Below are positions 3,603-61,215 of a stretch of 64,000 nt of DNA, in pieces. Under the pieces are notes generated by a model. The model saw nothing but the letters and a program-made list of their open reading frames with translations, made no database searches and was not told the origin of the DNA. This DNA comes from a virus (Duplodnaviria; Caudoviricetes). The translations under genes and the position numbers were made by a program. The stretch lies in IMG/VR virus record IMGVR_UViG_3300030055_000003; one strand, written 5' to 3'. How positions within the stretch are numbered: the stretch's first letter is position 1; each line of letters begins with the position of its first letter.

Positions 3603-3653
3603 AGTATAAATCTTCCAACCTAATAAGTCAATAGTCTTTCTATTAATTTATTT
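3603..3653 (-). promoter_or_regulatory. sigmaA promoter with upstream 16-bp operator copy
   Basis: TTGACT (3626-3631)-N17-TATACT (3603-3608); TTCTATTAATTTATTT at 3638-3653. Confidence 0.75.
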
Positions 3654-3712
3654 AAATAATATAAAAAGTTTCTAACAAATTTAATCTCTGCTAGAAACTT
3701 CTATGTTGTTAT

Positions 3713-3916
3713 TTAATTAAATCCTCCTAATATCCATTGAATTATTTTTATTGGTAACCAAAGTAACCACATTATTAGCCATACCCAAATAGGTATACAC
3801 AATGGAAAGAATCCATCTGAAAAATCTACCCATGTCCAATGAAAATCTCTTATATCTTTAGGTTTTATAAACCAAAAACCTATAAACATATAAATTCCAA
3901 AAGCTATGTACATCAT
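3713..3916 (-). CDS. Small membrane protein
   Basis: Two hydrophobic, Trp-rich segments. Confidence 0.7.
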   Translation of the reverse strand: MMYIAFGIYMFIGFWFIKPKDIRDFHWTWVDFSDGFFPLCIPIWVWLIMWLLWLPIKIIQWILGGFN

Positions 3917-3962
3917 ACAACCTCCTTTCTTCTGTTAATTTATTTACCTTCAAATTAGAATT

Positions 3963-4304
3963 TTAACAGAATACTTTTTCTAATTCAATTCTCTTAAATC
4001 TACATTCAATAAATTCATCTCCTACTTTTAAATTCACACTTATAGGATATTCAGGATATTTTACATCTACACCTAACACATATCCTATTTTACCTTTCAT
4101 ATTTTTTAAATCTTCTATTTCTATCTTGACCATTGCTTTGTCACCAATTAATAAATCGCCTAATAATTCTTTTTCGGCTAAAGTAGGTTCACAAAATTCT
4201 TGATAGAATATTCCTGTCATTTCATCTTCATTTATATCTTGTTTGACTTGTTCTTTTACTATTTTAGTAGCCCTTTTGGCTAAATCCCATAGATCTTTAC
4301 TCAT
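3963..4304 (-). CDS. Hypothetical protein
   Basis: ORF with RBS. Confidence 0.7.
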   Translation of the reverse strand: MSKDLWDLAKRATKIVKEQVKQDINEDEMTGIFYQEFCEPTLAEKELLGDLLIGDKAMVKIEIEDLKNMKGKIGYVLGVDVKYPEYPISVNLKVGDEFIECRFKRIELEKVFC

Positions 4305-4320
4305 TACAATTTATCCTCCT

Positions 4321-4527
4321 TTAATAATCTATTTCATTGCCATCTTTATCTAAGCATCTTTCAGCACCATATGAAAATTGATAATATACTCCACATTCAC
4401 ACTCTAGTTCTTCTTCACAAGTCATAGGATTCAATAAAGACAATCCTTCCCAATGAATCTGTTTCATTTCTTTGCCACACTTTGGACAATTCATAATCTC
4501 ACTTCCTTTCAACTTCCAATGAAACAT
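4321..4527 (-). CDS. Zn-ribbon hypothetical protein
   Basis: CPKC...CEC motifs. Confidence 0.65.
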   Translation of the reverse strand: MFHWKLKGSEIMNCPKCGKEMKQIHWEGLSLLNPMTCEEELECECGVYYQFSYGAERCLDKDGNEIDY

Positions 4528-4543
4528 TTATTTTATTTGCTTT

Positions 4544-5011
4544 TTAATTTGAACACTCTATCATATTTTTAATAACTGTTACTGTGTTTTTCAAAGCTTT
4601 ATTTAATATTTCCTCATTAATTTCAACATCTCTTACATCACCACTTCTAGACATTCCAGCACATACACAATCTGTTATCATTTCTAATACATCAAGTAAA
4701 TTTACATCTTCAGGACAATTAGATAATAGATGATGTCTTTCTTTGGCTATATGTAGTTGATACCATTCGTTATTAACAAAATCAGTTCCTTCATTCATTG
4801 TTGATAAAAGGTTATTATAAAATAGTTCTTCATCAGTTTTCTTCGTAATATCATGAGAGAAACCTATATCCATTATCATATAAGCTAACTCTTTCATGAC
4901 ATTTTTAACATCTCGCCTATGCATATCATTTGCTTGTTGAAATTCCTCAAAACTTACATCTTTTTTAGCCGTTCTTGTGTCTCCATTTGGATTTTTATAA
5001 ATTTTTACCAT
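4544..5011 (-). CDS. DUF5662-like HD-fold protein (putative phosphohydrolase)
   Basis: H...HDITK...ERHH...LLDVLEMITDCVCA motif series. Confidence 0.65.
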   Translation of the reverse strand: MVKIYKNPNGDTRTAKKDVSFEEFQQANDMHRRDVKNVMKELAYMIMDIGFSHDITKKTDEELFYNNLLSTMNEGTDFVNNEWYQLHIAKERHHLLSNCPEDVNLLDVLEMITDCVCAGMSRSGDVRDVEINEEILNKALKNTVTVIKNMIECSN

Positions 5012-5059
5012 ATACTCTCCTCCTTATATTTACCATAAAATAACATATCTATCGTGTTT

Positions 5060-5605: not shown

Positions 5606-5908
5606 TTAAACATTTAAAACCGTTGGAAATCCTAAATATTGTACACTGTCCACATCTTCTTGTTCCTCATATGTTTTAATAGTTTCTTCAATGCTATTAT
5701 GATTTATTTCTTCAATGTCATCATCGCCATCAGTATAATTAATTAGTATTAATGGTTTGCTTTTATTATCTATAATTTCTGGCAAACTACCATAATGTTT
5801 TCCTTGACCAATAAAATTACTATTTATGAAACTCTTAATTACCTCATAATTTTCACCTCTTATATCAAAAAATTGTTCTCCATCTAAATCTAAAAACATT
5901 CTCTTCAT
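5606..5908 (-). CDS. Hypothetical protein
   Basis: ORF with RBS. Confidence 0.7.
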   Translation of the reverse strand: MKRMFLDLDGEQFFDIRGENYEVIKSFINSNFIGQGKHYGSLPEIIDNKSKPLILINYTDGDDDIEEINHNSIEETIKTYEEQEDVDSVQYLGFPTVLNV

Positions 5909-6019
5909 CTTAATCTCTCCTTTATATTTTCTATTAATTTATTCTATTAAAATCAACCATTTACGGTAATTTCCTAGAACTGATTTTTATTTTTAATTCT
6001 AGGAAGTTATCTGTTTTTA

Positions 6020-6433: not shown

Positions 6434-7537
6434 TTATCTCTCCCTTTCATATAGCTTTCCATTTTGTAAGTATTTATTTTTATACATTGGTTGGAATTCG
6501 TCATATATTTCTTTTAGTGTTGTATTCTTTATAAATCCGTTTTTATAAGTATCTGATTTATTATAAATATTATAATCATCAGTATCGTATTCACCTTGTT
6601 CATCTCTTCTTTTATCTAATTCCATTCTATTGTTTTCGCCACTATAAAAATAAAACCACCTTCTTTTATCTGCATCTTCTTTAAATTCTTTAAAAGTATA
6701 TTTAAATAATTTATCTTTACTTTCATCATAAGGGGAGTATTCAGTTTTTCTTTCTAGTCTATCAAATAAATCAGCATAGTTTTCAACACATTCTGAAGAT
6801 ACTATATCTATAAATTTATCTCCTAATGATTTTAATATTAATGTTTCTAAATAAGGCTCATCTCTGTAATTCAAAGACTCCTTCACAAAGAAATGATGTT
6901 TACCTTTATTTACATCTTTATAGATATAATCATAGTCATAACCATATCTGCTATTGTTTCTATATACTTTTTCTGAATCTCTTGACCATTTATCAAATCT
7001 TCCCATGTAAATCCATTCGTTCATTGATTTATCTTTATATGTAGCACCTATTATTAAGTCTTTTGCTTTAAATTTTTTATTCTCAAATAATACATCATTA
7101 AACTTTTGAATTTCTTGATAATCTGGAGATGATGTAGGAATTAATATTAAATCTTTTCCGTCCCATCCATATACAAATTCCCCTTCAAGCCCTTTTCCTT
7201 TTATTGCACTAGTATTTTCTAATATATATAATAGGTTTTCTATAGTTATCTCAAATTCAAAATCACGACTATCATAGATTCTTACATATGCTTGTCTATG
7301 ATCCCAACCATTTGAGTAATCCCCTACTTTCTTGTTTAAAACAAAACCTTCAGTTGGAACATTATCATATATTATGTTGTCTATTTCATCATCCCTCCAA
7401 CTATTCCATGAAGTTTCTTTTCTTAAAACTCCTTTATTGTCAAAATAAATAACATAAGCTAATTTCTTTGTATATGTATCTTCTCTATTTCGAAATCCTA
7501 CATTTATTTGTTTTGGTATAAAAATATTACTTTTCAT
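6434..7537 (-). CDS. Conserved phage protein of unknown function
   Basis: IFIPKxIxVGF...KKLAYVIY...RKETSWNSWRD...DSRDFEFEITIENLLYILEN conserved-looking blocks. Confidence 0.75.
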   Translation of the reverse strand: MKSNIFIPKQINVGFRNREDTYTKKLAYVIYFDNKGVLRKETSWNSWRDDEIDNIIYDNVPTEGFVLNKKVGDYSNGWDHRQAYVRIYDSRDFEFEITIENLLYILENTSAIKGKGLEGEFVYGWDGKDLILIPTSSPDYQEIQKFNDVLFENKKFKAKDLIIGATYKDKSMNEWIYMGRFDKWSRDSEKVYRNNSRYGYDYDYIYKDVNKGKHHFFVKESLNYRDEPYLETLILKSLGDKFIDIVSSECVENYADLFDRLERKTEYSPYDESKDKLFKYTFKEFKEDADKRRWFYFYSGENNRMELDKRRDEQGEYDTDDYNIYNKSDTYKNGFIKNTTLKEIYDEFQPMYKNKYLQNGKLYERER

Positions 7538-7591
7538 TTACTCATTTCCTTTCTTCTATTAATTTATTTAACACTTGTTAAAATTAACTAT

Positions 7592-8661: not shown

Positions 8662-9216
8662 TTAATCCTCCTTTATAAATCCATCTAATAATGTGTAATT
8701 CAAGAAATTTTTATCTCTAAAATAAATATACATTTCATCATTATTTTTAAAATTCAAATCTCCTTTAAACCCTTTAAACTCACTCATTTCATATGTTAAC
8801 CTTTTAATAATATTAGATATACTATCCCCTCGTCTAATCATTCTAAATATTCTTATATACCAAGGCGTTTTTATATATAATGTTTTAATTTGAACATCTA
8901 TATTTTTTTCTTTTAAACTTTTTACTCCTGTAGGGAATAATAAATAAAAGTCTTTATTTTTTAAATCTTCTTCTATAGTATAATACCTATCTATTTTATC
9001 TTTATTTGGAACGGGTTGTCTTGCAATTGCTATAGCCCATTCCTCATTAGCTTGTTCTTCAGAAACAAATAAATGTGTATTTTCTCCTTTAAATCTTGGT
9101 TTACGTGTAGTTCTGCTGATTACTTTTTTCATATTGAAATCTTGGCATATTTTATCAGTGATATAATCTTTACCTGCTCCAGACTTTCCTACTGGTACAT
9201 ATAATATGTTACTCAT
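8662..9216 (-). CDS. gmk: Guanylate kinase-like nucleotide kinase
   Basis: P-loop GKSGAGKD; SRTTRKPRxxE...HLFVS. Confidence 0.85.
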   Translation of the reverse strand: MSNILYVPVGKSGAGKDYITDKICQDFNMKKVISRTTRKPRFKGENTHLFVSEEQANEEWAIAIARQPVPNKDKIDRYYTIEEDLKNKDFYLLFPTGVKSLKEKNIDVQIKTLYIKTPWYIRIFRMIRRGDSISNIIKRLTYEMSEFKGFKGDLNFKNNDEMYIYFRDKNFLNYTLLDGFIKED

Positions 9217-9578
9217 TATATTTCACCTCCAAAAACTGAAATATAAATTCCTTTTATTTTGTCTTTTTCTTTATAATGGATTCTGCCACATCTGTTGCTT
9301 TTACTATTATGTATTTCTGTAATTGTATTTGTTCTATTATCTTTGACTATTTTGAGGTAGCCATAATAACAAATATCTCTATCTTCATTAATACTATCAG
9401 TACTTGAACTATAAAACCCTCTGTTTAATTTGTACTGGATTTCAAAATCTGTAAGGTTATGACTTTTATTAGTAGTCTCTCTGTACTTATTAATTACATC
9501 TTTTTTAACTTTCAGCCAAGGAAAACCATTCTCAGTTAATTTACTTTTTAATTGTGATTTTTTAAATAATTTAAACAT
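9216..9578 (-). CDS. Hypothetical protein
   Basis: Coupled ORF. Confidence 0.7.
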   Translation of the reverse strand: MFKLFKKSQLKSKLTENGFPWLKVKKDVINKYRETTNKSHNLTDFEIQYKLNRGFYSSSTDSINEDRDICYYGYLKIVKDNRTNTITEIHNSKSNRCGRIHYKEKDKIKGIYISVFGGEI

Positions 9579-9613
9579 TTCTTTAACCTCTTTCTTCTAT
9601 TAATTTATTTGAA

Positions 9614-10884: not shown

Positions 10885-11076
10885 ATTCTTTTTAACTCCT
10901 TTACTATTCTAAACTTTTCGTTTAATTTGTTATAGACTCTATTTATAGCTTCCTGTCTTATGTATGGTTGTCTTTTATCTTCTGGAATTTCACTTAAACA
11001 TCTTTTCATAAATATTACCTCCTTAATCATATCTTACAACTTTTCTTATTGCTTGTCTATATTTATATTAATTTAT

Positions 11077-11322
11077 TTATATTAAATCTTTATCTAAACC
11101 ATACTTTAATATTATTTTATTAATATCTAGTCCATTAGACAAATCAGTATGAATTATATTTAAAGCCATAGCATAAGAATTTGAGGTTCTAGTATTTATA
11201 TCCTTGCATAATTTTTGTAAATATATTTCACTAATATTAAATTCTTGCGATAGGCTTTTTATGATATTATCATATGTAATTAATTGTGATTTTGCTTGAG
11301 ATTGCAAATCTATTAAACTCAT
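11077..11322 (-). CDS. Hypothetical protein
   Basis: Coupled ORF. Confidence 0.65.
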   Translation of the reverse strand: MSLIDLQSQAKSQLITYDNIIKSLSQEFNISEIYLQKLCKDINTRTSNSYAMALNIIHTDLSNGLDINKIILKYGLDKDLI

Positions 11323-13943: not shown

Positions 13944-14270
13944 CTATTCAATTTTATTTCTTCTTCCATATTTCTTAGCATCTCTTAAATAATTATAATC
14001 ATCTTTTACTCTACATTCTTTACAAGCATCCCATAAAAGACTTTCTTGCGTATAATCGGTATATCCTAAATATTCACATGTATAAACTATATCACGACAT
14101 GAATTTCTTGGAGTTGTCCAACATTCTTCATTGCAATTATTGGCATGTTCACAATTTGTTTTGTTTCTTTTTATAGTTGTTATGTATTTTCTCCAAGGAC
14201 ATTTTGCTTTTGGGTTATAACAATAACAAGTATCTTTAGGAATCCATTTCTTCATTGCTCTCTTTTTCAT
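13944..14270 (-). CDS. Cys-rich hypothetical protein
   Basis: Multiple Cys clusters. Confidence 0.7.
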   Translation of the reverse strand: MKKRAMKKWIPKDTCYCYNPKAKCPWRKYITTIKRNKTNCEHANNCNEECWTTPRNSCRDIVYTCEYLGYTDYTQESLLWDACKECRVKDDYNYLRDAKKYGRRNKIE

Positions 14271-14429
14271 ATTATCACTTCCTTATGTATTTCTATTAAT
14301 TTGTTTGTCTAAACTAATATTATCATAAACTACCAATCAATGCAATAGTAATTCTATTAATTTATTTAAATATTTTAAAAAGCAATAAAAGAGAACTATA
14401 AAAATTCAATTATAGTTCTCACAACTCTG

Positions 14430-15968: not shown

Positions 15969-17261
15969 TTAACCCTCCTTACGTAATTCTGTTCCATCAA
16001 TGATTAAATTAACTTTTCTACAATCTAACTTATCTTCATTTCTATATTTTATATCATAATAATCATTTATATCCAATACAAAATTAGACAAATGCCATAT
16101 TCTAGTTACTCCATCTTTGTTAATTCTAGTAATTATAAATCCACTTATATTGATTAACCATTGATATTTTGACACTTTTGAAATATCTTCTTTATCTATA
16201 ATCACTTTTACTTCGCTATTATTTCTTTTAATGGATATATATGCAATATCACCACATTCAATAATTAAATTTTTATGAACCTTTGTATGTTTTGTTTCTT
16301 CATTATTAAGCAAATTTAGTTCTTTTTTAACCTTTTTCCTTCTGTCGTATTCAATCTCAACTGCACCTAACCAATTAAAAAATATATGCATTATTTTATA
16401 TATATTAGCTTTACATATTATTTCTTTTGGATACCATATTTTAAATTTTTCTTCTATGGTTACAAAATCTATATCATATTTCCCATTATATAATTCATAT
16501 AAATAATCCATTCTTGCAGAACTCTCTAAATCATATAGTGCTATTCTCTTTATATTTATAACCTTACACGCCTTGTAAATTCTAGAATTAAGTGTATCAT
16601 AATTAACAATTTCATGGTTTTTGCCTTTTATTATATGAAAAATGTTTTTGTTAAAATCAATATATTTCTTTTTATGGATTTCCTTTGCTAAATCCATCCA
16701 TTTTAAGAAATCAGAATCCACACTAATATGCAGAATTATTTCTTCTTCTTCATTAAATATAATCACTTCTTTATTTTTAAAATCTATATCTTTCCACTTT
16801 ATTTGCCTAGCATATATCATCTTCTGACCAGTAATACCGTATCTAGCTAATATTAAAGGTAAAACATTGTCTATGCCATTTGCTTCAAAAATTTTTCTAC
16901 ACAAATTAAAAAAATTATACTTAGAAATATACCAAGAATTATCTACTTTGTTTTTTCGTTTTAATTTAAATTCTTTGAGTTCTTTATGATAACTTTTAGA
17001 ATACCATTTTAAATAAAATTTAATAAAAGAATTAAATGTATATAATATACTGTCACTTAAGTCTGTGACTTTTTCATTACATTTTTTAATTTCATCTTCT
17101 CCAAAATCATATAAGTCTTTATTAGATTCATTTTCAATGTCAGCTATATAATTCATATACAAGTTCCAATTTGTAATTTCAGTAGATTTAGAGTAATTAG
17201 AACCTTTAAAAAATAAATATTTATTTACTTGAAATTGACTAGGTATAGGCATAAATTCCAA
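15969..17261 (-). CDS. MrpR-like degenerate tyrosine-recombinase-fold protein fused to a degenerate HNH domain
   Basis: Aligns by eye with 29547..30656 (LxxYG...IKWxDxD); lacks HxxR/LGH; C-terminus VIIDKED...QW...HLSNFVL...DIKYRNEDKLDCRKVNL. Confidence 0.6.
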   Translation of the reverse strand: MEFMPIPSQFQVNKYLFFKGSNYSKSTEITNWNLYMNYIADIENESNKDLYDFGEDEIKKCNEKVTDLSDSILYTFNSFIKFYLKWYSKSYHKELKEFKLKRKNKVDNSWYISKYNFFNLCRKIFEANGIDNVLPLILARYGITGQKMIYARQIKWKDIDFKNKEVIIFNEEEEIILHISVDSDFLKWMDLAKEIHKKKYIDFNKNIFHIIKGKNHEIVNYDTLNSRIYKACKVINIKRIALYDLESSARMDYLYELYNGKYDIDFVTIEEKFKIWYPKEIICKANIYKIMHIFFNWLGAVEIEYDRRKKVKKELNLLNNEETKHTKVHKNLIIECGDIAYISIKRNNSEVKVIIDKEDISKVSKYQWLINISGFIITRINKDGVTRIWHLSNFVLDINDYYDIKYRNEDKLDCRKVNLIIDGTELRKEG

Positions 17262-19011: not shown

Positions 19012-19740
19012 TTATTTTTTATATGTAAATAGCTTTTCAGTTCTGATATTCTTACCATCACCAGCTACTTTATTACTATCAATGTTTACTATAATTTCTT
19101 TCTGCCATATACATTCAAATTCTTCAGGCATATTATATTCACTTATTAAAACTGTATTATGTACGCTCATATCTTTTACCCATTTATAAAATTCTTCATA
19201 TGGAAACTTTTCTGTTTTATATTTTGTAGTGTCTCTATATGGTATGTCACAATAGATGATGTAGTTATTAATTTTATCCAATGGTAAATCTAAAAAGCTT
19301 GTACATTTGAAATCAATACCTTCTAAGTTAGGAGCTTGTTTTTTTAGATTTTTAATTGCACCTGCTGACCATTTACCACTATTATCATCTTTACTATCTC
19401 TAGCGTATCCACCAAAATACTTAGCACTAAAACTAGCACAGAATCCAACTAAACCCACAAACCATTTTTCATATTTATCCTTATTATTTTTGACTTCTAT
19501 GTACTTATCTTCTAATATTCTTTCGGGCAATAAACCACTAAATTCTTGTGCATATTTTAATAGTTCAATTAATTCCTCATGTATATCACAACCTATACGT
19601 TTCTTACATTGTATTTTATCAATCATATTTGCCCCACCTACGAATGGTTCTAAATATCCCTTAGTATTTTGGGTTATGTATGATTGTATAATTGGTGCTA
19701 ATTCTTTGCTTAATTTATTTTTACTTCCTACATATCTCAT
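19012..19740 (-). CDS. Dam-family (D12 class) DNA adenine methyltransferase, DIPY variant
   Basis: RYVGSK, EPFVGGANM, YCDIPY, VLISEY. Confidence 0.85.
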   Translation of the reverse strand: MRYVGSKNKLSKELAPIIQSYITQNTKGYLEPFVGGANMIDKIQCKKRIGCDIHEELIELLKYAQEFSGLLPERILEDKYIEVKNNKDKYEKWFVGLVGFCASFSAKYFGGYARDSKDDNSGKWSAGAIKNLKKQAPNLEGIDFKCTSFLDLPLDKINNYIIYCDIPYRDTTKYKTEKFPYEEFYKWVKDMSVHNTVLISEYNMPEEFECIWQKEIIVNIDSNKVAGDGKNIRTEKLFTYKK

Positions 19741-19743: not shown

Positions 19744-20499
19744 TTATATTCCTTCTTTCTTTATTATTTCTATTAATTTATTTCTATAGCTATTATGTAT
19801 AAATAATTTTTCTGTATCTTGTTTTCTGCTATTCTTATCTAATGTAGTAGTTAAAGTCTTTTCATAGATGCATTTAAAATCGTCTGGGGCATTATATTCA
19901 CTGACCAATACTATATTAGTTTCACTCCATTCTCTAACCTTGTCCCAAAATAATTCATAATCAAAATCTTTGCTAGAACCATATTTTGTTGTTCCTTGAT
20001 ATGGAGGATCACAATATATTAGATTGCTTGTTGGATTTAATTCTGTATAATCTGAATGTATAAATTTAGTATCTAATAATCTATCTCTTTGTTTTAATAT
20101 ATTTCTTATAGCTTCATCATAATAATCTCTAATAGTTCCTATTTTAGTATTTACTTTTCCTGCATATCCTCCAAACCATTTAGAATTATATGTAGCACAG
20201 AATCCAGCTATAGCAACTAATGATTGTCCATATTCATCTTTATTATTTTTAATGTTATTATACATTTCTCTACTCATTTCTGAAGGTGGATTCCAACCAT
20301 CTATTAAATCATTCCATAAAGCCATTAGATATTTATTATTATCATAACCTATTTTATTTTTGCATTGAATATGTTCCATCATATTAGCACCACCAACAAA
20401 AGGTTCTATGTACGCATCAACATTATTCTCTTTTATTAATTTATTTATTATTGGAGATATATCTTTTGACAATCTCGCTTTGCTACCCATATATTTCAT
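19744..20499 (-). CDS. Dam-family (D12 class) DNA adenine methyltransferase
   Basis: KYMGSK, EPFVGGANM, YCDPPY, VLVSEY. Confidence 0.9.
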   Translation of the reverse strand: MKYMGSKARLSKDISPIINKLIKENNVDAYIEPFVGGANMMEHIQCKNKIGYDNNKYLMALWNDLIDGWNPPSEMSREMYNNIKNNKDEYGQSLVAIAGFCATYNSKWFGGYAGKVNTKIGTIRDYYDEAIRNILKQRDRLLDTKFIHSDYTELNPTSNLIYCDPPYQGTTKYGSSKDFDYELFWDKVREWSETNIVLVSEYNAPDDFKCIYEKTLTTTLDKNSRKQDTEKLFIHNSYRNKLIEIIKKEGI

Positions 20500-22556: not shown

Positions 22557-22721
22557 CAGTTCCTCCTTTAATAATTACGAATATCTTTAAATTTAACCGA
22601 TATATTCACTCCATATTCTTTTAACCTTTTAATTTTCTTTTGACATTTAATGTACTTCTTAACCTTTTTATAAAATCTTATTGGATTTAATATCATTCAA
22701 TCACCGCTTACTTCTATTAAT

Positions 22722-22916
22722 TTATTTAGTTCTTAATTTAAATAACTCATTTTGTATAATTAATGATTTAAATTCATATATAGGCATGTCATCATTATAG
22801 TTAGAAAAACTATTTATATCTATCCCTAAAGCTACTAACTTTTCATCCAACTCCTTTTCACTATATCCTGAATAATCTTCATAAAAATTACATTTAGATC
22901 TTAATCCTCTTTTCAT
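22722..22916 (-). CDS. Hypothetical protein
   Basis: Coupled ORF. Confidence 0.65.
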   Translation of the reverse strand: MKRGLRSKCNFYEDYSGYSEKELDEKLVALGIDINSFSNYNDDMPIYEFKSLIIQNELFKLRTK

Positions 22917-22917: not shown

Positions 22918-23325
22918 TTATTCGCCTTCTCTCAAATAATCAAACCTTTTTAAATATATATATTTCTTTTTAAAGTCATTAGGTAGCTTACTCCATTGTT
23001 CATCTGAATATATTTCATGTTGTCTTCCTTTAACTCTATGACCTACAAAATATCCATATCCTCCACATTTAGGGCAATACTCATCATCTTCATTGTCTAT
23101 ACTAGATGACTCTTGATAGCCACAACTATCACAATAAGCTATTTCTTCTATATTTTCTTTAGTAATATCTATGATTATTTTCTTGCCTTTATAATACCAA
23201 GTTGGCTTTCTACCCTTTAATTTAGTTACCATTTCAAACAATATTCTTTCTACAACAGCAGTATCTTTAGAACTATGAATATAATTTTGAAAATTTTTAA
23301 TTTCTGATAAGTTTACTGTTTCCAT
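22918..23325 (-). CDS. Zn-ribbon hypothetical protein
   Basis: CDSC...CPKC. Confidence 0.7.
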   Translation of the reverse strand: METVNLSEIKNFQNYIHSSKDTAVVERILFEMVTKLKGRKPTWYYKGKKIIIDITKENIEEIAYCDSCGYQESSSIDNEDDEYCPKCGGYGYFVGHRVKGRQHEIYSDEQWSKLPNDFKKKYIYLKRFDYLREGE

Positions 23326-23386
23326 CTTTGTACCTCATACTTTCTATTAGTTTATTTCCTTTTAAAATTCACCATTTATTGGAATG

Positions 23387-25687: not shown

Positions 25688-25768
25688 TCTATTAATTTGT
25701 TTATATTAACAGTATAGTCTTGCCACATCTAAATGTCAATAGATTTCATGTTATTTTATATTAATTTA

Positions 25769-41404: not shown

Positions 41405-41743
41405 TTACCAATTATGTTTTCTTTCTCTGTTTTCATTCTGTTCTTCAAATGTATTTAAAATATCATAATAGTCTTTATTAAATATTCTATCTATGTCATG
41501 TTTACTATTAATTCTAACAAAACAATCAGGTCTATAATGATATAGATAACCATTATAAGTTAAAAACATACCCTTTTCTGTCATTTTTATAGTTTCTTCA
41601 AAACAATCTTTGCATATATAAATTCCTTCACTGCTATGACAAAATCCATCCCATTGATTAATTCTAAATGAATCTATATCTTCTTTATTATGTAGCTTAC
41701 CACATATTGAGCATTTTTTAGTTTCATCTTCCATAACTTTCAA
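41405..41743 (-). CDS. Zn-finger hypothetical protein
   Basis: CSIC...CKDC. Confidence 0.7.
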   Translation of the reverse strand: MKVMEDETKKCSICGKLHNKEDIDSFRINQWDGFCHSSEGIYICKDCFEETIKMTEKGMFLTYNGYLYHYRPDCFVRINSKHDIDRIFNKDYYDILNTFEEQNENRERKHNW

Positions 41744-41909
41744 CTCTCTTTCTATATTAATTTATTTCTAACTTTATGTATCAATTCAGCTATAAATGTG
41801 AATAGCTTCTTTAGTTACTGCCGAATGGCTTAGAACTTATCTGATAATATAATTATAGCATACTTTACCAACAAATCAATACTTTTTAAATAAATTAATA
41901 GAATTATTT

Positions 41910-44210: not shown

Positions 44211-44519
44211 CTAAAACATAATAACTATTGTCTTTTCCCATTTTAATGAATTTATAATATCCTCTACTTGTTTATCTATTTCAATATCTTTTAGTCCACT
44301 ACCTTTTTTACTATAAAAAACATCATATTCAACTTGTCCTTTATCATAATATTTATCATCATAATAAGCAATATCTTTAATCATTACATCACTAGGCTCA
44401 TAATGTTCTATATCGTCATCATCCATAGTTGGCATAATTTTTATTGGTAAATTTGGATTTTCATTTATTACTTTTCTAATTTTATGTGATATATTCATAT
44501 CTATTAACACCATCCTCAT
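44211..44519 (-). CDS. Hypothetical protein
   Basis: ORF. Confidence 0.65.
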   Translation of the reverse strand: MRMVLIDMNISHKIRKVINENPNLPIKIMPTMDDDDIEHYEPSDVMIKDIAYYDDKYYDKGQVEYDVFYSKKGSGLKDIEIDKQVEDIINSLKWEKTIVIMF

Positions 44520-44806
44520 AAATATTATTTTAACATTAATTTCCTTAACTTGATATGTATTTCCTTATTAATAATATATCATATTCCAGTTATAATTTTA
44601 AGCTTTCTTCTATTAATTTATTTATCTTATTCTAAGACTAGCACTTCCATATTCTCTTTAATCCAGCTTTCACTAGTTCCACGCTCTATGAGTTCATTAA
44701 TCTTTGTATTAACATCACCTACAAACTTTAAAGTTGCATTTATATTATAATTATCACAAACTTTCATTATCTGTTCAAAGAAATTATATTTCATTTTCAA
44801 ATCCTC

Positions 44807-47966: not shown

Positions 47967-48154
47967 TCTTATTAATACTTCCTTTTTTAAATATTTTTAT
48001 CTCTATTCATTATTATTGCAATTTTTGCAAGATTTTATAACTGGATTAATACTGATAATTTCTAATTGTTTAAAAGGACATTTATTACAGTTTTTATTGT
48101 TTAACTTAACAATTTCATTCATAATTAAAACCTCCTCTTTCCATTAATTTGTTT

Positions 48155-48403
48155 TTATTTTTCTAATAATTCTTTTAAGTCTTCAATATCATAAAACTTA
48201 TCTTCTTGAATATCATAATAATATTTATATCTAGTTTCTAATTGTTTTATGATTTCTTTTATTTTTAATTTATCAGCAACTATTTTATATGTATAACCTA
48301 ACTCTTTAATACCTTCATGATTTTGTTTTTCTATGAATACTTTTGTAAATGTTTCTGGTTGAGCATCTGTTAAAATACCATAGTAATTTTCAAAATTTTT
48401 CAT
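48155..48403 (-). CDS. Hypothetical protein
   Basis: Downstream of sigmaA promoter. Confidence 0.7.
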   Translation of the reverse strand: MKNFENYYGILTDAQPETFTKVFIEKQNHEGIKELGYTYKIVADKLKIKEIIKQLETRYKYYYDIQEDKFYDIEDLKELLEK

Positions 48404-48619
48404 TTAAATCAACTCCTTATATCTATTAATTTATTTAAACTATGCCTATCTCTTATCTATGTACTAAGTATAGCATAGTATTTTTACTATTGCAACAAAT
48501 TAATAGAATTAAACCTAATTATTTTTTAATTTTATATATAAGAAAAAGAACTGCATTTTACTACAATTCCATTAACTATTTTACATTTATTACCAAGTAA
48601 AATTTAGATTTTATGGTAA

Positions 48620-49439: not shown

Positions 49440-50402
49440 TCAATCAAATTTATATTGTTTCAATATATCTACAATAATATCACCTGTCCAACCATTACCA
49501 ATAGCTTTAATTCTTGCTTTATCACTTAAACCATCAGCTTTAGTATAACCGTCTGGCAATGTTTGTAGCCTTTCTAATTCTACTATGGTAAATTTTCTAA
49601 TTATACCATCATAGTAAACACATATGTCACAACTACAATCTAAAGTATTAGATTTTTCTTTTATAACTCTTCCTCGTCTTGTTTTACTTGTTGGAAACTG
49701 AAGATTGACTCCATCTCCATTATTAGCAACTATGTATCCTTGTTTTGTAGCTTGACTTATTCTTACCTCGCCATCTACAACGTCAATTAGGTTATATGCT
49801 TTTTCACTTATACTAGGATCTATTTTGAGTCCTTTATAATCTATGTAATTGCTTGTATCAACATTTTCTAATATGTCTAATAATTTAATTTGTTTATCTT
49901 CTGGTGGTTCTATGTATGTACTTGTCCAATATAATCGAGGTCTATTTTGTGCTGAAAGGAGTTTGCTATTAATCGCAATAGGTTCACAATTCATATAATT
50001 ACTGATAGTATCTCTTGTCGCTTTTTTCATTTCAACATTTTCTAGTAAAAATTGTACATTAGGATTATTATTATCTCTTATCCAGTTTAATACTCTTAAA
50101 TATTCAAAGAATAATTTACTTTCAGTACCTTCTAATCCTTTATTATCTCCTGCTCTTGAATTATTTTGACAAGGACTACCTCCAATCAATAAATCAATTC
50201 TAGGTAATTTTTTTAATTCAGTTTCGTCTAATAAAGTAACATTACCTAATCTAATAATATCATCAAAATTCTTTTTACTAATTTTCATTGCATTCTCATC
50301 AATTTCACTTGCGAAATACTTATATACCTCAATTCCTGCTCTTTTTAGTACTAATCTTCCCGTACTATGTCCATCAAATAAACTTACTACATTTATATTC
50401 AT
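49440..50402 (-). CDS. DNA (cytosine-5) methyltransferase
   Basis: SLFDG, GGSPCQ, FLLENV, QNRPRLYW, IGNGW; start reassigned to MNINVV behind AAGGAG. Confidence 0.92.
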   Translation of the reverse strand: MNINVVSLFDGHSTGRLVLKRAGIEVYKYFASEIDENAMKISKKNFDDIIRLGNVTLLDETELKKLPRIDLLIGGSPCQNNSRAGDNKGLEGTESKLFFEYLRVLNWIRDNNNPNVQFLLENVEMKKATRDTISNYMNCEPIAINSKLLSAQNRPRLYWTSTYIEPPEDKQIKLLDILENVDTSNYIDYKGLKIDPSISEKAYNLIDVVDGEVRISQATKQGYIVANNGDGVNLQFPTSKTRRGRVIKEKSNTLDCSCDICVYYDGIIRKFTIVELERLQTLPDGYTKADGLSDKARIKAIGNGWTGDIIVDILKQYKFD

Positions 50403-50540
50403 TTTATCTCTCCTTGCTTTTATTAATTTATTATGATTTGTAAAACCACTATATATAGTATGTCCAGTATAAGGCAAACCACAATATATAGATTTAAGAC
50501 CTTTTAAAATATAAGTTTTAATTGAATTAATTTGTCATTA

Positions 50541-52048: not shown

Positions 52049-52123
52049 AATATTATATTACTATTATACCATTAATTTGAAAGAATATACCTATTATTAA
52101 AAGTATTTTATATTAATTTATTT

Positions 52124-52555
52124 TTATAAATAAATCTCATACCATCTTTCAGTAGTGCAACCAGAATATTCTGTTTTATACATTATATATAAGCATTTTA
52201 CTTGTTTAATTTTTTGTAATTTTAAACCTATTAAAAAATTCATGTATCCTTCATAAGTATGTTTATATTTCTTAATCAATTTATTTTTATTATTATAAAC
52301 ACTCATATTTACAAAAGGATAAACTTCTTCATATAATCCTTTTTCTCGTTGAATATCTTTGTACTCTTCTTTTATTGTAGTAATCAAATAATCCACACTG
52401 GCGTTTTTATCTTTAATTATATCATAGGATTCTCCTTCACAACTATAACAAGCACTTTCATAGGCATCTTTATAGCTTAATCCTTCGTTTAAATATGACT
52501 TAACCAATTTATTAAAATATTCTTTATCTCTTTCATATAATTCTTTTATATTCAT
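52124..52555 (-). CDS. Hypothetical protein
   Basis: ORF. Confidence 0.7.
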   Translation of the reverse strand: MNIKELYERDKEYFNKLVKSYLNEGLSYKDAYESACYSCEGESYDIIKDKNASVDYLITTIKEEYKDIQREKGLYEEVYPFVNMSVYNNKNKLIKKYKHTYEGYMNFLIGLKLQKIKQVKCLYIMYKTEYSGCTTERWYEIYL

Positions 52556-53171: not shown

Positions 53172-53582
53172 TTATTTCTCAATCCAATGAAAAGCATCCA
53201 TCATAGATTCATATTCATAATCTGACACATCTATTTTATTATCACTTATGTATAAATGTATAGCAATGAATCCTCTTGTAAAGTAATCATCATATAATTC
53301 TTTTCCTTGTAAAACTACCCATGAAATAAAATCTAAATCCTTATCTTTGTTTACAAATCCCATATTTTCTTTATATAATAATTTAAATTCTTTATCACTT
53401 ATAAACTCATTCATTATTTCAGAAAATTCCATCATAAGCCAATCCATAGTATCTCTTATTTTACAATTTTCATTTAGTAATTTACATAAGTTTTCACATT
53501 GTTTAGCTGATTTAAAGTTAGCATTCTTCTTTGATTCTTCAATTAAAACCCATAATTTTTCTCTTAATTTTTTATCTAACAT
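53172..53582 (-). CDS. DUF4240-like protein
   Basis: LWVLIEES...DFISWVVLQGKELY...YESM. Confidence 0.6.
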   Translation of the reverse strand: MLDKKLREKLWVLIEESKKNANFKSAKQCENLCKLLNENCKIRDTMDWLMMEFSEIMNEFISDKEFKLLYKENMGFVNKDKDLDFISWVVLQGKELYDDYFTRGFIAIHLYISDNKIDVSDYEYESMMDAFHWIEK

Positions 53583-53620
53583 ACTTTTAATCTCCTTTAT
53601 ATTTGTTATATTAATTTATT

Positions 53621-55240
53621 TTATAATTCAAACATATCCATTCCTATGATAAATCTTTGTACTTTCCCAGTCTCTATACTCATAGGTGTTAAGATAGTAT
53701 TGATTTCATCTTCTGTAAAATCACCATAACACAAAACAACTCTACCTGTACAACCTAAATTACGTCTTGTAAATTTATCATCAAATTTCCTTATTTTTAT
53801 CTTAGCTCCACTATAAGTTAATGTAGCAGTTGCATAACTATAATTACTAGCATCTATTGTTGATTTATCAAATTGACATCTACATGAAATATCCTCAAAT
53901 ATTTCTTTTATATTATCATTTTTAGTTACTATTAATATAACATTGTTATACTTTAATTTTAAATCGTATTCTAACGCTTTTCTTACTATAAAATCCTTTA
54001 ATTTGTTTTCTACAAATGATTTTAAATCTACTTCTCCTTTATTGATTGTCATTATTTTTTCTAATTCATTGAAACAATTAAATTTTCGTTCTATCTTCAT
54101 TGTCTCAGTTTCTTTAATTACTATTAGGCTAAAACTTCTATTGGTTTTTCTTTGAGTAGTTACTTTAAACTCTTCAGATATAAATAAGTCTTTAATATTT
54201 TGTAAATTTTCTTTTATTATATCATTATATTCTTTTACCCTTTTATTTTTTACTTTTTGTTCTTGCATTATTGCACCTTTAAAATCAATAGTATTAGTGA
54301 AATTTATATCACCAGCACTTTCTTCATATAAATTAGCATTTCTCCTTTGACCTCTAATTGGTTTTTCATCAAACATCTCCTTATATTCATTACAAAGGTC
54401 GAATTCCTTGTCAAACATTAAATCTCCAATGTGTTTCTTAGTATCTACTATTTGTTCTCTAGTTAAATAACCAGATTCTATAAGCTTCTTAATTCCTATT
54501 ACATGATAACTAATATCTTTTCTGCAATTGAACAAATTCATTATAGGATGTTTAATGGTAAATACTGATACATACTTTTTAGCCTTAATATCTAATTGAG
54601 GTAATCCATCGTCAAACAAAACCATGTCAATTATTTCATCTTCATCAAATCTTTCATCTTTATCACATATAGTTATCGTTTCCCCTGTATCAAATTCAAT
54701 AAACAATTTCTTTCTAGAGAAATTATAATACCTAATTGATTCTCTTATAGTATCATCCAAAGCAAATATTTCTTCAAAATGGTCTTTTAAGATTCTTAAT
54801 TGCCCCATATTACTATTTATGTATAAGACTGTCTTTGGTTTCTCATACATTACTTTATTAGCTAATAGGAAAGTTTTGCTACCTTGTCGACTTATATTAG
54901 CCATTATTATTTTTGAGTCATCTCTCACAATGTCTGCTTGCCATTCAAATAATCTAAATTCTTTTTTCATTTTTACATCAATCTCCTTTGATTCTTCAAA
55001 TTTTTCAATATCTTCAATATAATATTTAATATATTTTATAAGGTCTTTTTCATCTGTTGTAAAATCTATGTCTAAAAAATAGTCACCATAATATAATCTA
55101 TCCTCGGAAAAATATAAATTTCTATTTTTTACATAATTCACAACTTCATCTATGTCCTTAAATACAAGAACACTATCTTTAGATATTGTGTTTTCTACAT
55201 TGCAATATTTTAAGCTTTTTAATTTAAAGTTATATTTCAT
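53621..55240 (-). CDS. Degenerate terminase-ATPase-like (P-loop) protein
   Basis: EWQADI...ISRQGSKT; VLFDDG in Walker B position. Confidence 0.45.
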   Translation of the reverse strand: MKYNFKLKSLKYCNVENTISKDSVLVFKDIDEVVNYVKNRNLYFSEDRLYYGDYFLDIDFTTDEKDLIKYIKYYIEDIEKFEESKEIDVKMKKEFRLFEWQADIVRDDSKIIMANISRQGSKTFLLANKVMYEKPKTVLYINSNMGQLRILKDHFEEIFALDDTIRESIRYYNFSRKKLFIEFDTGETITICDKDERFDEDEIIDMVLFDDGLPQLDIKAKKYVSVFTIKHPIMNLFNCRKDISYHVIGIKKLIESGYLTREQIVDTKKHIGDLMFDKEFDLCNEYKEMFDEKPIRGQRRNANLYEESAGDINFTNTIDFKGAIMQEQKVKNKRVKEYNDIIKENLQNIKDLFISEEFKVTTQRKTNRSFSLIVIKETETMKIERKFNCFNELEKIMTINKGEVDLKSFVENKLKDFIVRKALEYDLKLKYNNVILIVTKNDNIKEIFEDISCRCQFDKSTIDASNYSYATATLTYSGAKIKIRKFDDKFTRRNLGCTGRVVLCYGDFTEDEINTILTPMSIETGKVQRFIIGMDMFEL

Positions 55241-55281
55241 TTTATTCGTTCCTTTCTTTTATTATATTAATTTATTATGTA

Positions 55282-56747: not shown

Positions 56748-57368
56748 TTAAACAACTTTAACTGGAATCCATTTCTCTTTTTGTTCTTTAAGCCATAAAT
56801 AACTGATATATCCATCCACTAGAGCATATTTCCCATCAGGTCTTTGTCTTACAGTTATAGCACTTTCTACACCTTTGTTATTCCCAAATATATCAAACTT
56901 AGCTAATTTCTTTTCACGTTTAGGTTGTCTTATTTTCATTATGTCTAATATCACTAAATCTTTATAATTCAAAAAATATTCAGTATCTTTTGGTTGTTTT
57001 GTATGCTTTTGAATTATTCCAATATTCTTTTCAAAATTACAATGAGATAATTTACTATCTACAACAATACATTTAATATTTACATTTAATAATTGTGCTA
57101 GCCTATACCATTTTAAACCTGAAACTAACACATAACCTTTGTTGCTAAGTTTTCTAACAATAATAGTTTTATTAAGTTCTAATTGTTTTTCTCTAAATGC
57201 TCTTAAAGCATATCCAAGGTCTTTGTTAAATCTTGTAGTTCTTGCTCCTTTAATATGTATATCATCTCTTAAACCAATTTCTTTTGGTGATAATTCAATA
57301 ACTGAATCCTTATTGTCCTCATAAAATTTTTCAATTATTTCTTGATTCTGTTTTCCTACATTTATCAT
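56748..57368 (-). CDS. Protein with two ParB/Srx-like domains
   Basis: IIVRK...YVLVSGLKWY and ITVRQ...YALVDGYISY. Confidence 0.6.
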   Translation of the reverse strand: MINVGKQNQEIIEKFYEDNKDSVIELSPKEIGLRDDIHIKGARTTRFNKDLGYALRAFREKQLELNKTIIVRKLSNKGYVLVSGLKWYRLAQLLNVNIKCIVVDSKLSHCNFEKNIGIIQKHTKQPKDTEYFLNYKDLVILDIMKIRQPKREKKLAKFDIFGNNKGVESAITVRQRPDGKYALVDGYISYLWLKEQKEKWIPVKVV

Positions 57369-57567
57369 TTTAATACAACTCCTTCTATGTAATTATTATT
57401 AATTTATTTCTTAACCTTATATTATCATATCACCTAAATCATGTCAATAATTCTTTTCATATTTATCTTAATTTGTTTTAATGGATTTTTAACCTTCCAT
57501 ATACTCTTAAATACTCGTTTATACTCTGTTTTTCAAAACCAACTTTACCATAAAATAGATATTTTAT

Positions 57568-58136: not shown

Positions 58137-58194
58137 GTAAGCGACTAGCCTGTCAGCTAGTTTCGGCGACTCTCACGTTCCTTATCAAACTTAC
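58137..58194 (-). ncRNA. Type I hammerhead ribozyme, U3-A8 core variant
   Basis: GUAAGU-UUGAUAA-stem II-GAAAC-UAGC(UGACAG)GCUA-GUC^GCUUAC; stems I and III pair fully. Confidence 0.75.
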
Positions 58195-58530
58195 TTATAA
58201 TACTTCATTAATTCTTTCTTGCATTCTTGTAGCAATTTTATTAACAATGGATTGAGCAAATTTTTGTATTTCTAAATAATCGAATACCTCAGATAATAAT
58301 TTTGAATCATCTTCTTTTCCATCATCACATAAATCACAAAATTTTTCATATTCATATTTAGTATCTTTTAATGCTTAAAATTTTTCATCTATATCTTTTA
58401 AACCAATTCCAAAAAATTTTCCGATACCTTCAATCTCCATAACATCTATAAACCTTGTATTTCCTAATTCTATGTTTACATATTCACTATTTAACTTTGC
58501 AACTGCTTTTAATAATTTTTCATTTAACAT
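58195..58530 (-). pseudogene. Hypothetical gene interrupted by an in-frame TAA
   Basis: RBS+ATG at 58530, TAA at 58375-77, frame continues to stop at 58195. Confidence 0.6.
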
Positions 58531-59148
58531 AATCCCCAATCTCCTTTTATGCCTTAACCTCCAACTGGTAGGTGGCTTTAATTTTTATTTATATTCTATT
58601 TCAAACTTTCCATATCCTAAATATTTAATATTATTATTTGGTAAATTTTCAACACCATTATCTATATAATCTTTTGCTCTCTCAAAGGTACAAAAACTAT
58701 TTTTTGCTATGTACTTTGCACATTTATCTCTAGTAACTATTCTCTTCATAACTTCCAACCCCTTAAATTTATTTTTATCTGTTACTTAACTTCTGATATA
58801 AGTATAACATATCATCTAAAATAATACAATACTATTTCTGTTAATTTGTTTAAATATTTAAAATTATTTTATTATTGCTGAAAATACTGGATTTATCAAC
58901 ACTATATAGAATCTAATACAAATACAACTCATATCGACTATATAAGCGTTTTAAATTTCATAGGTCTTAGTATATGTCTATGTGTCTTAAAATTGATTCT
59001 GGTGCATTGTGGTGAGTAAGTTTTATTGTTTATGGGTTCTAAAACCTCAGTAGATAAAATTATAGTTTTAAGTTAATATTGATTATTGTTTTCAATTAAA
59101 TATGGATAAAAAAGAAAGCTACCTTCTACAGTAGCAATAATAGTTTTT

Positions 59149-59412
59149 TTATTTGATTAATTTTAGTTTTGTGACTTCTTCCCAGTTACTTGCCGTTATA
59201 AGTTCTACTTTGCTCATATCTTTTCTCAGTGCTGATACTTCCTTAACAATGTCTTTTGTATCTGTCGGAATGTCTGACATGCTATCTTTTAAGCTTTTAA
59301 CGTCTTCTTTAATTATTTTTACATCTGCTTTTAATTCTTTGATGTCAGCCTTTATTGGTTCTAGTTCTTCTTTTAACATTGTCCTTATTGCTTTTAATGT
59401 TTCATTATCCAT
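59149..59412 (-). CDS. Heptad-repeat coiled-coil protein
   Basis: IKADIKELKADVKIIKEDVKSLK. Confidence 0.75.
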   Translation of the reverse strand: MDNETLKAIRTMLKEELEPIKADIKELKADVKIIKEDVKSLKDSMSDIPTDTKDIVKEVSALRKDMSKVELITASNWEEVTKLKLIK

Positions 59413-59819
59413 ACTTTAAAGCACCTCTCTTATAATAATTATATCAGATTCTATAGCAATTACAATTTAATTATTTTGCAACTTATTCCCATCTGATAAA
59501 TATAATTATACTCTTTTAATTTATTGTTGTATATAAATTTTAAAATAAATTAATAGAATTTTTTATTAAAATAAGTTTTTTAATTGGTTATTAAAACAAG
59601 TGTTTACGGTTCACCTGTTTTTAATACAAGAAAAAATTCTCTTTATAGGCTCATAACTGAATTTTATTTCTATAGGTGCAATTGTATTCCTTATGATTCA
59701 ATATAGCCTTGGAATCCATTCTGACGCTATAATATTGTGGTAAAATTATTTTTTCTTATGAAAATATAACAAAAGGAACTATAAAATTTTTTCTTATAGT
59801 TCCTTAAATATTTTTTTAA

Positions 59820-60536
59820 TTAGCTAAATGACCAGTTACTAACATAAGTGACAGCATTGCTATAATTCAATGGATTCAAATCACGATATTCAGAAACATT
59901 AAATGTATCACATAACCCTAACCACAAATTTTTAAAATACGTTCTTGAATTGTCTTTATACTTTTTAGAATGTGCTCCACCTAACATCGTACTAACTCTT
60001 TCTCTTGCGTGTTTATTTATTTGTTTTGCTTGATATGAATTGATTGTAGCTGAATTTATTAATGTCCCCATAGTTTTGTCCATATCTTCTATTTTTACTT
60101 TTAAATCTTTTATTTCACCTTCTAAACCTAAGTCATTATAAGTTTGTTGTCTTTTTTCCTCAGTTCCAAAGAAGGCTTCATGCAATACATCTTTGCATTG
60201 AAATTGATACTTAACTAATTTTTCAACTGTTTTTGGGTTCTCTTTTTGCATAGTTGGAGTCAATGAAATCTTAGCAAGCCAAAGTGTAACAAAATCTTCT
60301 CTAATAAAATACATTTCTTTAGTTGCTTGCATAGTGCCATATTTGGCACTCATCATTTTATAACCTTGTGATAATACAATATCATTCTTAATATTTCTAG
60401 CTTGCTTCTTACATTGATCTTCTGAAAGTCCTATGTCTTGCATAGTTTTATTTGCAGACATCCAAACAATTTCATTTTCATCCTTTACTCCTAATAGTTC
60501 ATCATCATAAAACTTAATTAATTTTTCTTTTAACAT
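59820..60536 (-). CDS. Phage antirepressor (ANT N-terminal plus ORF6C domain)
   Basis: FYDDELLGV...DFVTLWLAKI...YQFQCKDVLHEAF; C-terminal TFNVSEYRDL. Confidence 0.85.
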   Translation of the reverse strand: MLKEKLIKFYDDELLGVKDENEIVWMSANKTMQDIGLSEDQCKKQARNIKNDIVLSQGYKMMSAKYGTMQATKEMYFIREDFVTLWLAKISLTPTMQKENPKTVEKLVKYQFQCKDVLHEAFFGTEEKRQQTYNDLGLEGEIKDLKVKIEDMDKTMGTLINSATINSYQAKQINKHARERVSTMLGGAHSKKYKDNSRTYFKNLWLGLCDTFNVSEYRDLNPLNYSNAVTYVSNWSFS

Positions 60537-60624
60537 TTTAATCTCTCCCTTTATGTATTAATTTATTAGCATTTAATATGCTTATACAAAGGAACTTATT
60601 TTAATTCCCTTGAATCTACATACT

Positions 60625-60984
60625 TTAAAACGATTGACTGTTGGTATTTAATTGTAAGAATATATTTAATACTTTGTCAGTATCTTTTATTTTAGTATCT
60701 TCTAGTTTATTAATTTTCTTTAATAGTTTTTCATTACTTTTATAAATATAATCAAAGTAATCTAATTGAGTTTCATCCATACCGTCCCAATCAATAGCTC
60801 CAACTTCATTTCTTTTAACAGTTTTATAAAAATTATCTAAGTCTTTACTTGATTGCTCTTGTTTCTTAACTGTCTTTATGTATGTTACCTCATCTTTTAA
60901 TAATCCGTCATATCTTACTTTTTTATTTTGAGATGCACTTGTTTTCGCAAATCTTATATTTTGTTTATTTTTATCTGTAGCCAT
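60625..60984 (-). CDS. Hypothetical protein
   Basis: ORF with RBS. Confidence 0.7.
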   Translation of the reverse strand: MATDKNKQNIRFAKTSASQNKKVRYDGLLKDEVTYIKTVKKQEQSSKDLDNFYKTVKRNEVGAIDWDGMDETQLDYFDYIYKSNEKLLKKINKLEDTKIKDTDKVLNIFLQLNTNSQSF

Positions 60985-61215
60985 ATTATCACGCTTCCTC
61001 TATTCTGTTAATTTGTTTATTATGTATTTACTATCTACTATAGTTCGTCTAGCGTTGCACTAGATTTATTTTTATGTCTTAACTTGATTGCTTGAATTGT
61101 TTGTTCCTTATCTATGTATTAAGTATATAATAAATTAATAGAAATATCAATAGAAACCATTCGACAAATTTTGATAAAACTTATGTTTTATTTTAAGTTT
61201 TATATAAAAATTTAT

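Follow-up and report, generated by a model that had tools for sequence, protein, structure and literature searches.

An oriented 16-bp box repeated along an SPbeta-like phage contig, probably the operator of an integrase-fold repressor of the MrpR/SroF family

The DNA analysed here is a 64,000-nucleotide stretch (the window) of the virus record IMGVR_UViG_3300030055_000003, corresponding to the reverse strand of bases 7600–71599 of a 140,944-bp contig with 25% GC. The minus strand of the window carries nearly all genes, and scattered between them lies a short A/T-rich box of 16 bp, the subject of this report, which we consider the probable operator of a phage-encoded master repressor. The contig has SPbeta-like early genes, encoding YopQ-like, YorJ-like, YorK (RecJ)-like, and YorL (DNA polymerase)-like proteins, an NrdE-like protein, a dUTPase, and a YomM-like integrase, and it also encodes a DnaB-like helicase, a topoisomerase II, and a ligase. 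No structural genes were found among the scanned contig proteins. The candidate reader of the box is a protein of 369 amino acids (aa) of the MrpR/SroF family of integrase-fold repressors, encoded at 29547–30656. Directly upstream of this gene, as in SPbeta, stands a YopQ/SroE-like gene (30658–32043, 461 aa). A second MrpR/SroF-family gene, for a paralog of 430 aa that is the alternative box reader, lies at 15969–17261, and a YopP-like gene for a true tyrosine recombinase (307 aa) lies at 37964–38887; genes for Xre-type helix-turn-helix (HTH) proteins are found in the switch region. Coordinates are those of the window, and the genes and boxes named are on the minus strand unless marked (+), as are all boxes called reversed.

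Read on the gene strand, the motif is AAAYAAATTAAYAGAA, and the sequence of the 16-bp box is AAATAAATTAATAGAA; it was searched for as TTCTRTTAATTTRTTT. Exact copies of TTCTRTTAATTTRTTT number 16 in the window against 0.01 expected, copies with at most one mismatch 31 against 0.57 (with a maximum of 3 in the shuffles), and copies with at most two mismatches 54 against 8.1. An earlier note on this DNA had described a 16-bp motif repeated at least 20 times, and these counts bear it out. All 20 forward positions that it gave hold real copies (14 exact; five with one mismatch, at 5929, 24870, 27376, 29371, and 48421; and one with two mismatches, at 36945). Four of its five reversed positions are likewise real (41888, 48493, 59543, and 61128), but the fifth, 32539, is only a partial copy matching at 12 of 16 positions, near which a reversed copy with two mismatches lies at 32580. 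The array continues beyond the window ends and spans the whole contig, with 62 copies. The note had also held that most copies are intergenic, and so they are: the fully intergenic DNA of the contig (19.5 kb, 22% GC) contains 43 copies with at most one mismatch, and the coding DNA (121.6 kb) eight, a density about 33 times higher between genes than within them. In dinucleotide shuffles of the same intergenic DNA, the AT-matched null that had been named beforehand as the refuting test, the expectation is 0.165 copies. The array is real and highly non-random.

The box has sharp edges. Conservation, measured as information content, covers exactly 16 positions and drops to background on either side, apart from a weak preference for T at −1 and for A three bases beyond the box; the conserved letters include a C at position 4 and a G at position 14. 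Its centre, ATTAAT, is a palindrome; the box as a whole is one-way. This direction follows the genes: 26 of the 31 copies in the window (P = 2e-4) point the same way as they do, and so do 54 of the 62 in the whole contig (P = 2e-9).

Relative to promoters and ribosome-binding sites (RBSs), the boxes take a small set of fixed places; the note had described copies flanking or inside promoters or just ahead of an RBS. Fifteen copies in the window and 26 in the contig stand just 5′ of an RBS, the contig count taking boxes that end 8–30 nt before a start codon, most commonly 16 nt. Exact boxes abut the RBSs of 3713–3916 (box 3930–3945, 13 nt to the ATG), 6434–7537 (7554–7569, 16 nt to the ATG), and 60625–60984 (61003–61018), and boxes with one mismatch abut those of 5606–5908 (5929–5944) and 22918–23325 (23342–23357). 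Several boxes of this class completely fill operon-internal junctions. The exact box at 9595–9610 begins 3 nt past a stop codon and ends 16 nt before the ATG of 9216–9578, which leaves no room for a promoter and resembles the places taken by the stoperators of mycobacteriophages.

Other boxes lie close to stop codons or in the gaps that follow them. The box at 53606–53621 (one mismatch) overlaps the stop of 53621–55240, 23 nt from the ATG of 53172–53582, and the box at 55262–55277 (two mismatches) begins 4 nt past a stop and is 21 nt from the ATG of 53621–55240 itself. An exact copy at 19768–19783 occupies the last codons of a D12 methylase gene, 27 nt from the ATG of 19012–19740; the box at 11063–11078 (one mismatch) overlaps the stop of 11077–11322, with a small open reading frame (ORF) 53 nt further on; and the box at 52108–52123 (one mismatch) directly follows the stop of 52124–52555, upstream of a TATAAT. 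Eleven nucleotides separate the box at 27376–27391 (one mismatch) from the ATG of 25769–27364. Two boxes are intergenic at a greater distance from the next gene: 24870–24885 (one mismatch), 49 nt ahead of 24398–24820, and 44608–44623 (exact), 97 nt ahead of 44211–44519. Box-like sequences with one mismatch within coding regions, at 20431–20446 and 62869–62884, are of doubtful function.

Two further boxes touch on gene finding. The exact box at 22712–22727 overlaps the upstream stop and lies 15 nt from the ATG of a small ORF, and the box at 48139–48154 (one mismatch) comes right after a stop and is followed by AGAGGAGG and the ATG of another. Both ORFs are shorter than 50 aa and absent from the ORF list, and the sites of both (~22680–22696 and ~48122–48138) show a good RBS and ATG. 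Boxes may thus help to find small genes.

At promoters the boxes are equally regular. In one class, the box ends 4–7 nt, most commonly 5 nt, upstream of a near-consensus −35 hexamer; window examples, all exact and each 6 nt from the −35, are 3638–3653 (TTGACT-17-TATACT, the promoter of 3135–3542), 14352–14367 (−35 TTGCAT), and 58836–58851 (TTGTAT-17-TATACT). Across the contig, 12 predicted promoters have a box with at most two mismatches ending 2–9 nt upstream of the −35. In another class, the box starts 8–30 nt after the −10, over the transcript start. The exact box at 25687–25702 lies 8 nt past the −10 of TTGACA-17-TATACT and abuts an RBS, as expected of an operator at the transcription start; that at 38899–38914 (exact) lies 14 nt past the −10 of TTGATT-17-TATAAT and abuts the RBS of the YopP-like gene; and that at 14291–14306 (exact) lies past the −10 and abuts the RBS of 13944–14270. 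The last of these brackets its promoter (TTGCAT-17-TAATAT) together with 14352, just as 25687 does with a two-mismatch copy at 25756–25771, 16 nt upstream of the TTGACA. Two boxes with two mismatches each, 57463 and 57394 (spanning 57394–57478), bracket TTGACA-17-TAATAT ahead of 56748–57368.

Reversed boxes belong mostly to such brackets. In the contig, six of the eight lie 0–10 nt upstream of a −35 and are matched by a forward copy beyond the −10, which may be exact or degenerate. The reversed box at 48493–48508 (one mismatch) overlaps the −35 of TTGCAA-17-TATACT, and its forward partner at 48421–48436 (one mismatch) lies past the −10 and abuts the RBS of 48155–48403. The reversed box at 41888–41903 (exact) is 8 nt upstream of TTGATT-16-TATAAT and is paired with 41752–41767 (two mismatches), which abuts the RBS of 41405–41743, while the reversed box at 63338–63353 (one mismatch), 10 nt upstream of TTGCAA-17-TATACT, has a degenerate forward copy past the −10. 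Two more reversed copies are at 59543–59558 (exact, within a long gap between genes, with a TATAAT downstream of it) and at 61128–61143 (one mismatch, 125 bp upstream of 61003). Promoters beside boxes are near-consensus (TTGACA-17-TATAAT-like), and a promoter scan confirmed promoters adjoining the boxes at two of the bracketed places, 48421/48493 and the array at 29195–29474 described below.

This geometry bears on two explanations in which the box would act without a repressor. The box could be a promoter for a phage RNA polymerase or sigma factor (YonO-type or T4-late-type), with transcripts starting just ahead of each RBS. SPbeta-like phages do encode the YonO polymerase, the box runs in the direction of the genes, and roughly half of the copies lie 11–28 nt before a start codon. 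However, eight copies oppose the genes, most of them right upstream of host-type −35 boxes; at least 12 copies keep a fixed 4–7 nt to a −35, a spacing that tandem promoters acting independently would not require; and the same layout in SPbeta is bound by a repressor. A tblastn search (E up to 1) found no YonO homolog on the 141-kb contig, which counts against this explanation, although the contig is an incomplete genome and a polymerase gene could lie elsewhere. We regard a phage promoter as unlikely. Alternatively, the box could act in RNA, as a leader element by the RBS, either to enhance translation or to be cut by a phage nuclease such as the MazF-like protein. The 15 window copies directly 5′ of an RBS, on the sense strand, would suit this, as would the MazF-like gene adjoining the repressor gene. 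Yet the appropriate RNA would contain neither the copies upstream of −35 hexamers nor the reversed ones, MazF-type sites are far shorter than 16 conserved, unstructured letters, and the SPbeta element with the same layout is a DNA site. An RNA element is thus very improbable, and the places taken by the boxes are better read as those of a repressor's operator.

We then considered the candidate repressor. The product of 29547–30656 matches the Pfam domain MrpR_N_CB (PF22822) at 27.0 bits, against a cut-off of 27, and its homologs, which come from Clostridium beijerinckii and Clostridium gelidum records, peat metagenomes, and other metagenome assemblies, carry both MrpR_N_CB (PF22822) and MrpR_C_cat (PF22823). 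A single-sequence phmmer search against the PDB reached YopR only marginally (E = 0.27), so a family profile was needed; built from 39 members, it placed YopR/MrpR structures at the top (E = 1.2e-10), followed by phi3T SroF. The AlphaFold model (predicted local distance difference test, pLDDT, 83) had as its top Foldseek matches the phi3T SroF-DNA complex 9RD5 and the MrpR structures 8A0A and 8BJ6 (E = 2e-12), ahead of true recombinases. The family profile did not align with the true recombinase of the window (37964–38887); it served to list family-invariant residues and did not map the catalytic positions. The repressor gene lies in an sro-like operon: its 461-aa neighbour matches YopQ, and the order of YopQ-like gene then repressor gene is kept in five relatives (L010, L014, L015, L016, and L017). 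By gene order, Pfam match, profile, and modelled fold, the product of 29547–30656 is the MrpR/SroF counterpart in this phage.

The surroundings of the repressor gene hold the densest array of boxes. An intrinsic terminator-like hairpin (29526–29548) marks the end of the gene, and beyond it, ahead of a MazF-like gene, four boxes within 29195–29474 (29459 exact, 29371 with one mismatch, 29281 and 29195 with two) alternate with three tandem TTGACA promoters at a period of 88–90 bp. The three units are near-identical, reading TTGACA-17-TATTAT, TAGGAT, and TAACAT, and the downstream gene encodes a MazF/PemK-like protein of 267 aa. In the relative L010 this promoter-box array has two units. On the other side, two reversed partial boxes at 32537–32595 (+), namely 32537–32552 (12 of 16 positions) and 32580–32595 (two mismatches), lie in the leader of the operon of a 98-aa gene, the YopQ-like gene, and the MrpR-like gene, downstream of TTGACC-17-TAAAAT. 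The leader of the repressor operon has boxes in reverse orientation only, both here and in L010:3017–3074, L015:8030–8086, L016:3376–3432, and L017:8021–8036.

The second family member, encoded at 15969–17261, is related to the first (hhalign probability 98.4%, 23% identity) and is extended at its C-terminus by about 110 residues. The gaps flanking its gene contain no box with two or fewer mismatches, and crude k-mer counting with the boxes masked yielded no second repeated motif that could belong to it. P0044, tried as a counterpart of the 430-aa paralog, was not a clear one (26% identity). The earlier note had called both proteins MrpR-like, and both do belong to the MrpR/SroF family; gene order favours the product of 29547–30656 over the paralog, making it the most likely reader of the box.

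To compare the array with that of SPbeta, we re-derived copies of the MrpR-bound element, SPBRE, from NC_001884 at genes with reported MrpR peaks in chromatin affinity purification sequencing (ChAP-seq). Such peaks lie at SPBRE copies ahead of ten genes, and MrpR represses PaimR and PyosX (PMC10516654). The re-derived copies are all co-oriented with their gene; those at aimR and yonX end 5 nt upstream of the −35, and those at yopM, yopV, and the second yonX copy are directly 5′ of the RBS. The likeness that the note had drawn to the MrpR-bound element therefore extends to position relative to −35 boxes and RBSs: both are dispersed, one-way, A/T-rich intergenic boxes in the same places and with the same 5-nt spacing to the −35. 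Both phages have homologous integrase-fold repressors whose genes follow a YopQ-like gene, and the box heads the operon starting with the YopP-like gene here, as SPBRE heads yopM in SPbeta. The two differ in that the conserved core is 16 bp here and about 23 bp in SPBRE, many boxes here sit in operon-internal junctions that lack a promoter, and reversed copies bracket promoters. The phage here is also Clostridium-type with 25% GC, and the function of its box is predicted from sequence.

The structure of the phi3T repressor suggests how such a box could be read. As a monomer, SroF wraps almost fully around its box, an asymmetric site of 26 bp that contains two A-tracts, and reads 24 of the 26 bp (bioRxiv 10.1101/2025.11.27.690993). 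This mode of binding fits the one-way, A-tract-rich box found here. The SroF-DNA complex, 9RD5, is the best structural match of the repressor model, and the TKxxY of the core-binding helix, which reads the box centre in phi3T, is conserved (T36 and Y40), whereas the phi3T major-groove readers H237 and R238 align with Y and N.

Our preferred reading, to which we give a probability of about 0.65, is that the box is the operator of the integrase-fold master repressor of the MrpR/YopR/SroF family, most likely the product of 29547–30656, with binding predicted. A repressor monomer would clamp each asymmetric box, as solved for phi3T SroF. A box 4–7 nt upstream of a −35, over a −35, or just past a −10 would block binding or escape of RNA polymerase, and many promoters are held between two boxes. 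If the footprint resembled that of SroF, with some 5 bp added to either end of the 16-bp core, it would extend to the −35 hexamer, which could explain the spacing. Boxes without a promoter, between a stop codon and the next RBS, would stop read-through in the manner of mycobacteriophage stoperators, and jointly the boxes would silence the early region in the lysogen. The analysis shows the array with its orientation and geometry, the repressor homolog, the matching geometry in SPbeta, and the altered box in relatives; binding, repression, and a roadblock role of the boxes are what we infer. The interpretation offered in the earlier note is supported.

Several points weigh against this reading. 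The reader protein and repression at the boxes are predictions from sequence and fold. The box is unlike SPBRE (~tAGACAAATACAAAwAATATGTATAT) and unlike the phi3T box, with no similarity to either beyond A-tract character; its 16-bp core is shorter than the 24 bp that SroF reads of its 26-bp box; and there are at least 62 copies in 141 kb here, compared with about 10 bound sites in 134 kb of SPbeta. The repressor operon contains no strong forward box, which suits the model but is not significant (P = 0.09). The phage also encodes other possible readers, the paralog of 15969–17261 and Xre-type HTH proteins.

Phages related to this one show how the box changes with the repressor. When no anchor was set, motif discovery in the relatives' loci, by k-mers or with mismatches allowed, drowned in A/T-rich noise, and boxes were therefore searched for by anchoring on the shared 5′ half, AAYAAAWT, in noncoding DNA. 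In L010, whose repressor is 85% identical, the box is kept as AAYAAATTAAT. L011 (71%) and L012 (64%) have AAYAAATTATAAA-type boxes, and L014–L017, with repressors 44–49% identical, have the box AAYAAAWTATAWAWAA, also written AAATAAAATATAAATAA, in which the 3′ half is different. These boxes likewise lie before RBSs or a few nucleotides upstream of TTGACA. A constant layout, with a 3′ half that changes as the repressor diverges, fits a phage-encoded reader. No further relatives came from IMG/VR, where a pattern search for the repressor gave no match and the exact 16-mer occurred, among the matches listed, only as single scattered copies; megablast with 20 kb of the window and tblastn with both MrpR-like proteins gave no match in the phage collection.

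The relatives bear directly on a reading in which no phage factor is involved and the box is a host-read A-tract or UP element, acting through the polymerase alpha subunit or DNA bending. The box is rich in A-tracts, a dozen promoters have it at about −41 to −56, and phased A-tracts are known upstream of clostridial promoters. Only about 12 of 62 copies occupy the −40 to −60 place, however, and most are not upstream of a promoter at all; C4, G14, and the sharp edges are too specific for such an element; the 3′ half differs among relatives though the host polymerase is conserved; and the exact 16-mer is single in the other IMG/VR contigs among the matches listed. A host-read element is consequently highly improbable.

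Which phage protein reads the box is a separate matter, as the change of box among the relatives is confounded with, and tracks, overall phage divergence; any phage-encoded DNA binder would show it, and no single protein is picked out. The reader could thus be another phage regulator: the 430-aa paralog, which is of the same fold family, one of the Xre-type HTH proteins encoded in the switch region, or an activator recruiting polymerase from about −48, near which activators and UP elements also act. Against an activator, the promoters beside boxes are near-consensus and would need none. Xre-type proteins usually read palindromes and the box is one-way. The same geometry in SPbeta belongs to MrpR, the repressor of PaimR and PyosX (PMC10516654), and it is the product of 29547–30656 that gene order makes the MrpR counterpart. 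We consider another regulator, for which the paralog would be the leading candidate, improbable, and keep the product of 29547–30656 as the probable reader.

The number and placement of the boxes also invite comparison with L5-type stoperators of Cluster A mycobacteriophages, where a monomeric repressor acts at more than 20 asymmetric, transcription-oriented sites at promoters and in short intergenic gaps (PMC9283540, PMC6550527). The boxes here are similarly numerous and asymmetric, lie in short intergenic gaps and at promoters, and are oriented with transcription. The L5 site is 13 bp and GC-rich, however, and elongation block has been demonstrated for L5, whereas here it is proposed by analogy. 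The L5 repressor, gp71, consists of an HTH plus a second domain; as the candidate reader here has an integrase fold, stoperators are an analogy and not a class to which the boxes belong. The array is of the SPBRE/MrpR kind, more numerous, and placed more like stoperators than in the models studied so far. A tentative extension, which we hold to be possible but doubtful, is that an SroF/MrpR-type repressor runs a genome-wide stoperator-like network, in which one-way junction boxes would block elongation and the boxes in the leader of the repressor's own operon would all be reversed and permissive. An orientation-dependent block of this kind, which is speculation, would leave the repressor operon, with its reversed leader boxes, readable.

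Other features of the region were noted beside these. A near-consensus TTGATT-18-TATAAT at 32822–32851 (+) stands directly ahead of a divergent Xre-type HTH gene (32858–33238); a transcript from it would have almost no leader, unless the start codon is further inside the gene. The gene at 25769–27364 and L002:16443–17909 encode paralogous large proteins (531 and 488 aa; phrog_4538, with homing-endonuclease and HTH matches), and a box precedes both genes. The early region also has genes for a C5 cytosine methyltransferase (49440–50477) and a D12-class adenine methyltransferase (19744–20499).

Taken as the operators of one repressor, the boxes provide a ready map of its likely regulon in a large, uncultured, Clostridium-type SPbeta-like phage. 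The layout of SPBRE, 5 nt upstream of the −35 or abutting the RBS, holds far outside Bacillus. The six-fold higher number of boxes and the many boxes without a promoter raise the question of whether integrase-fold repressors also stop elongation; if the stoperator-like network proved true, an unrelated fold would have converged on the strategy of mycobacteriophage L5. The variant pair AATTAAT and AAATATA, whose repressors share 44–85% identity, offers natural material for studying DNA recognition by this fold and the divergence of immunity groups.

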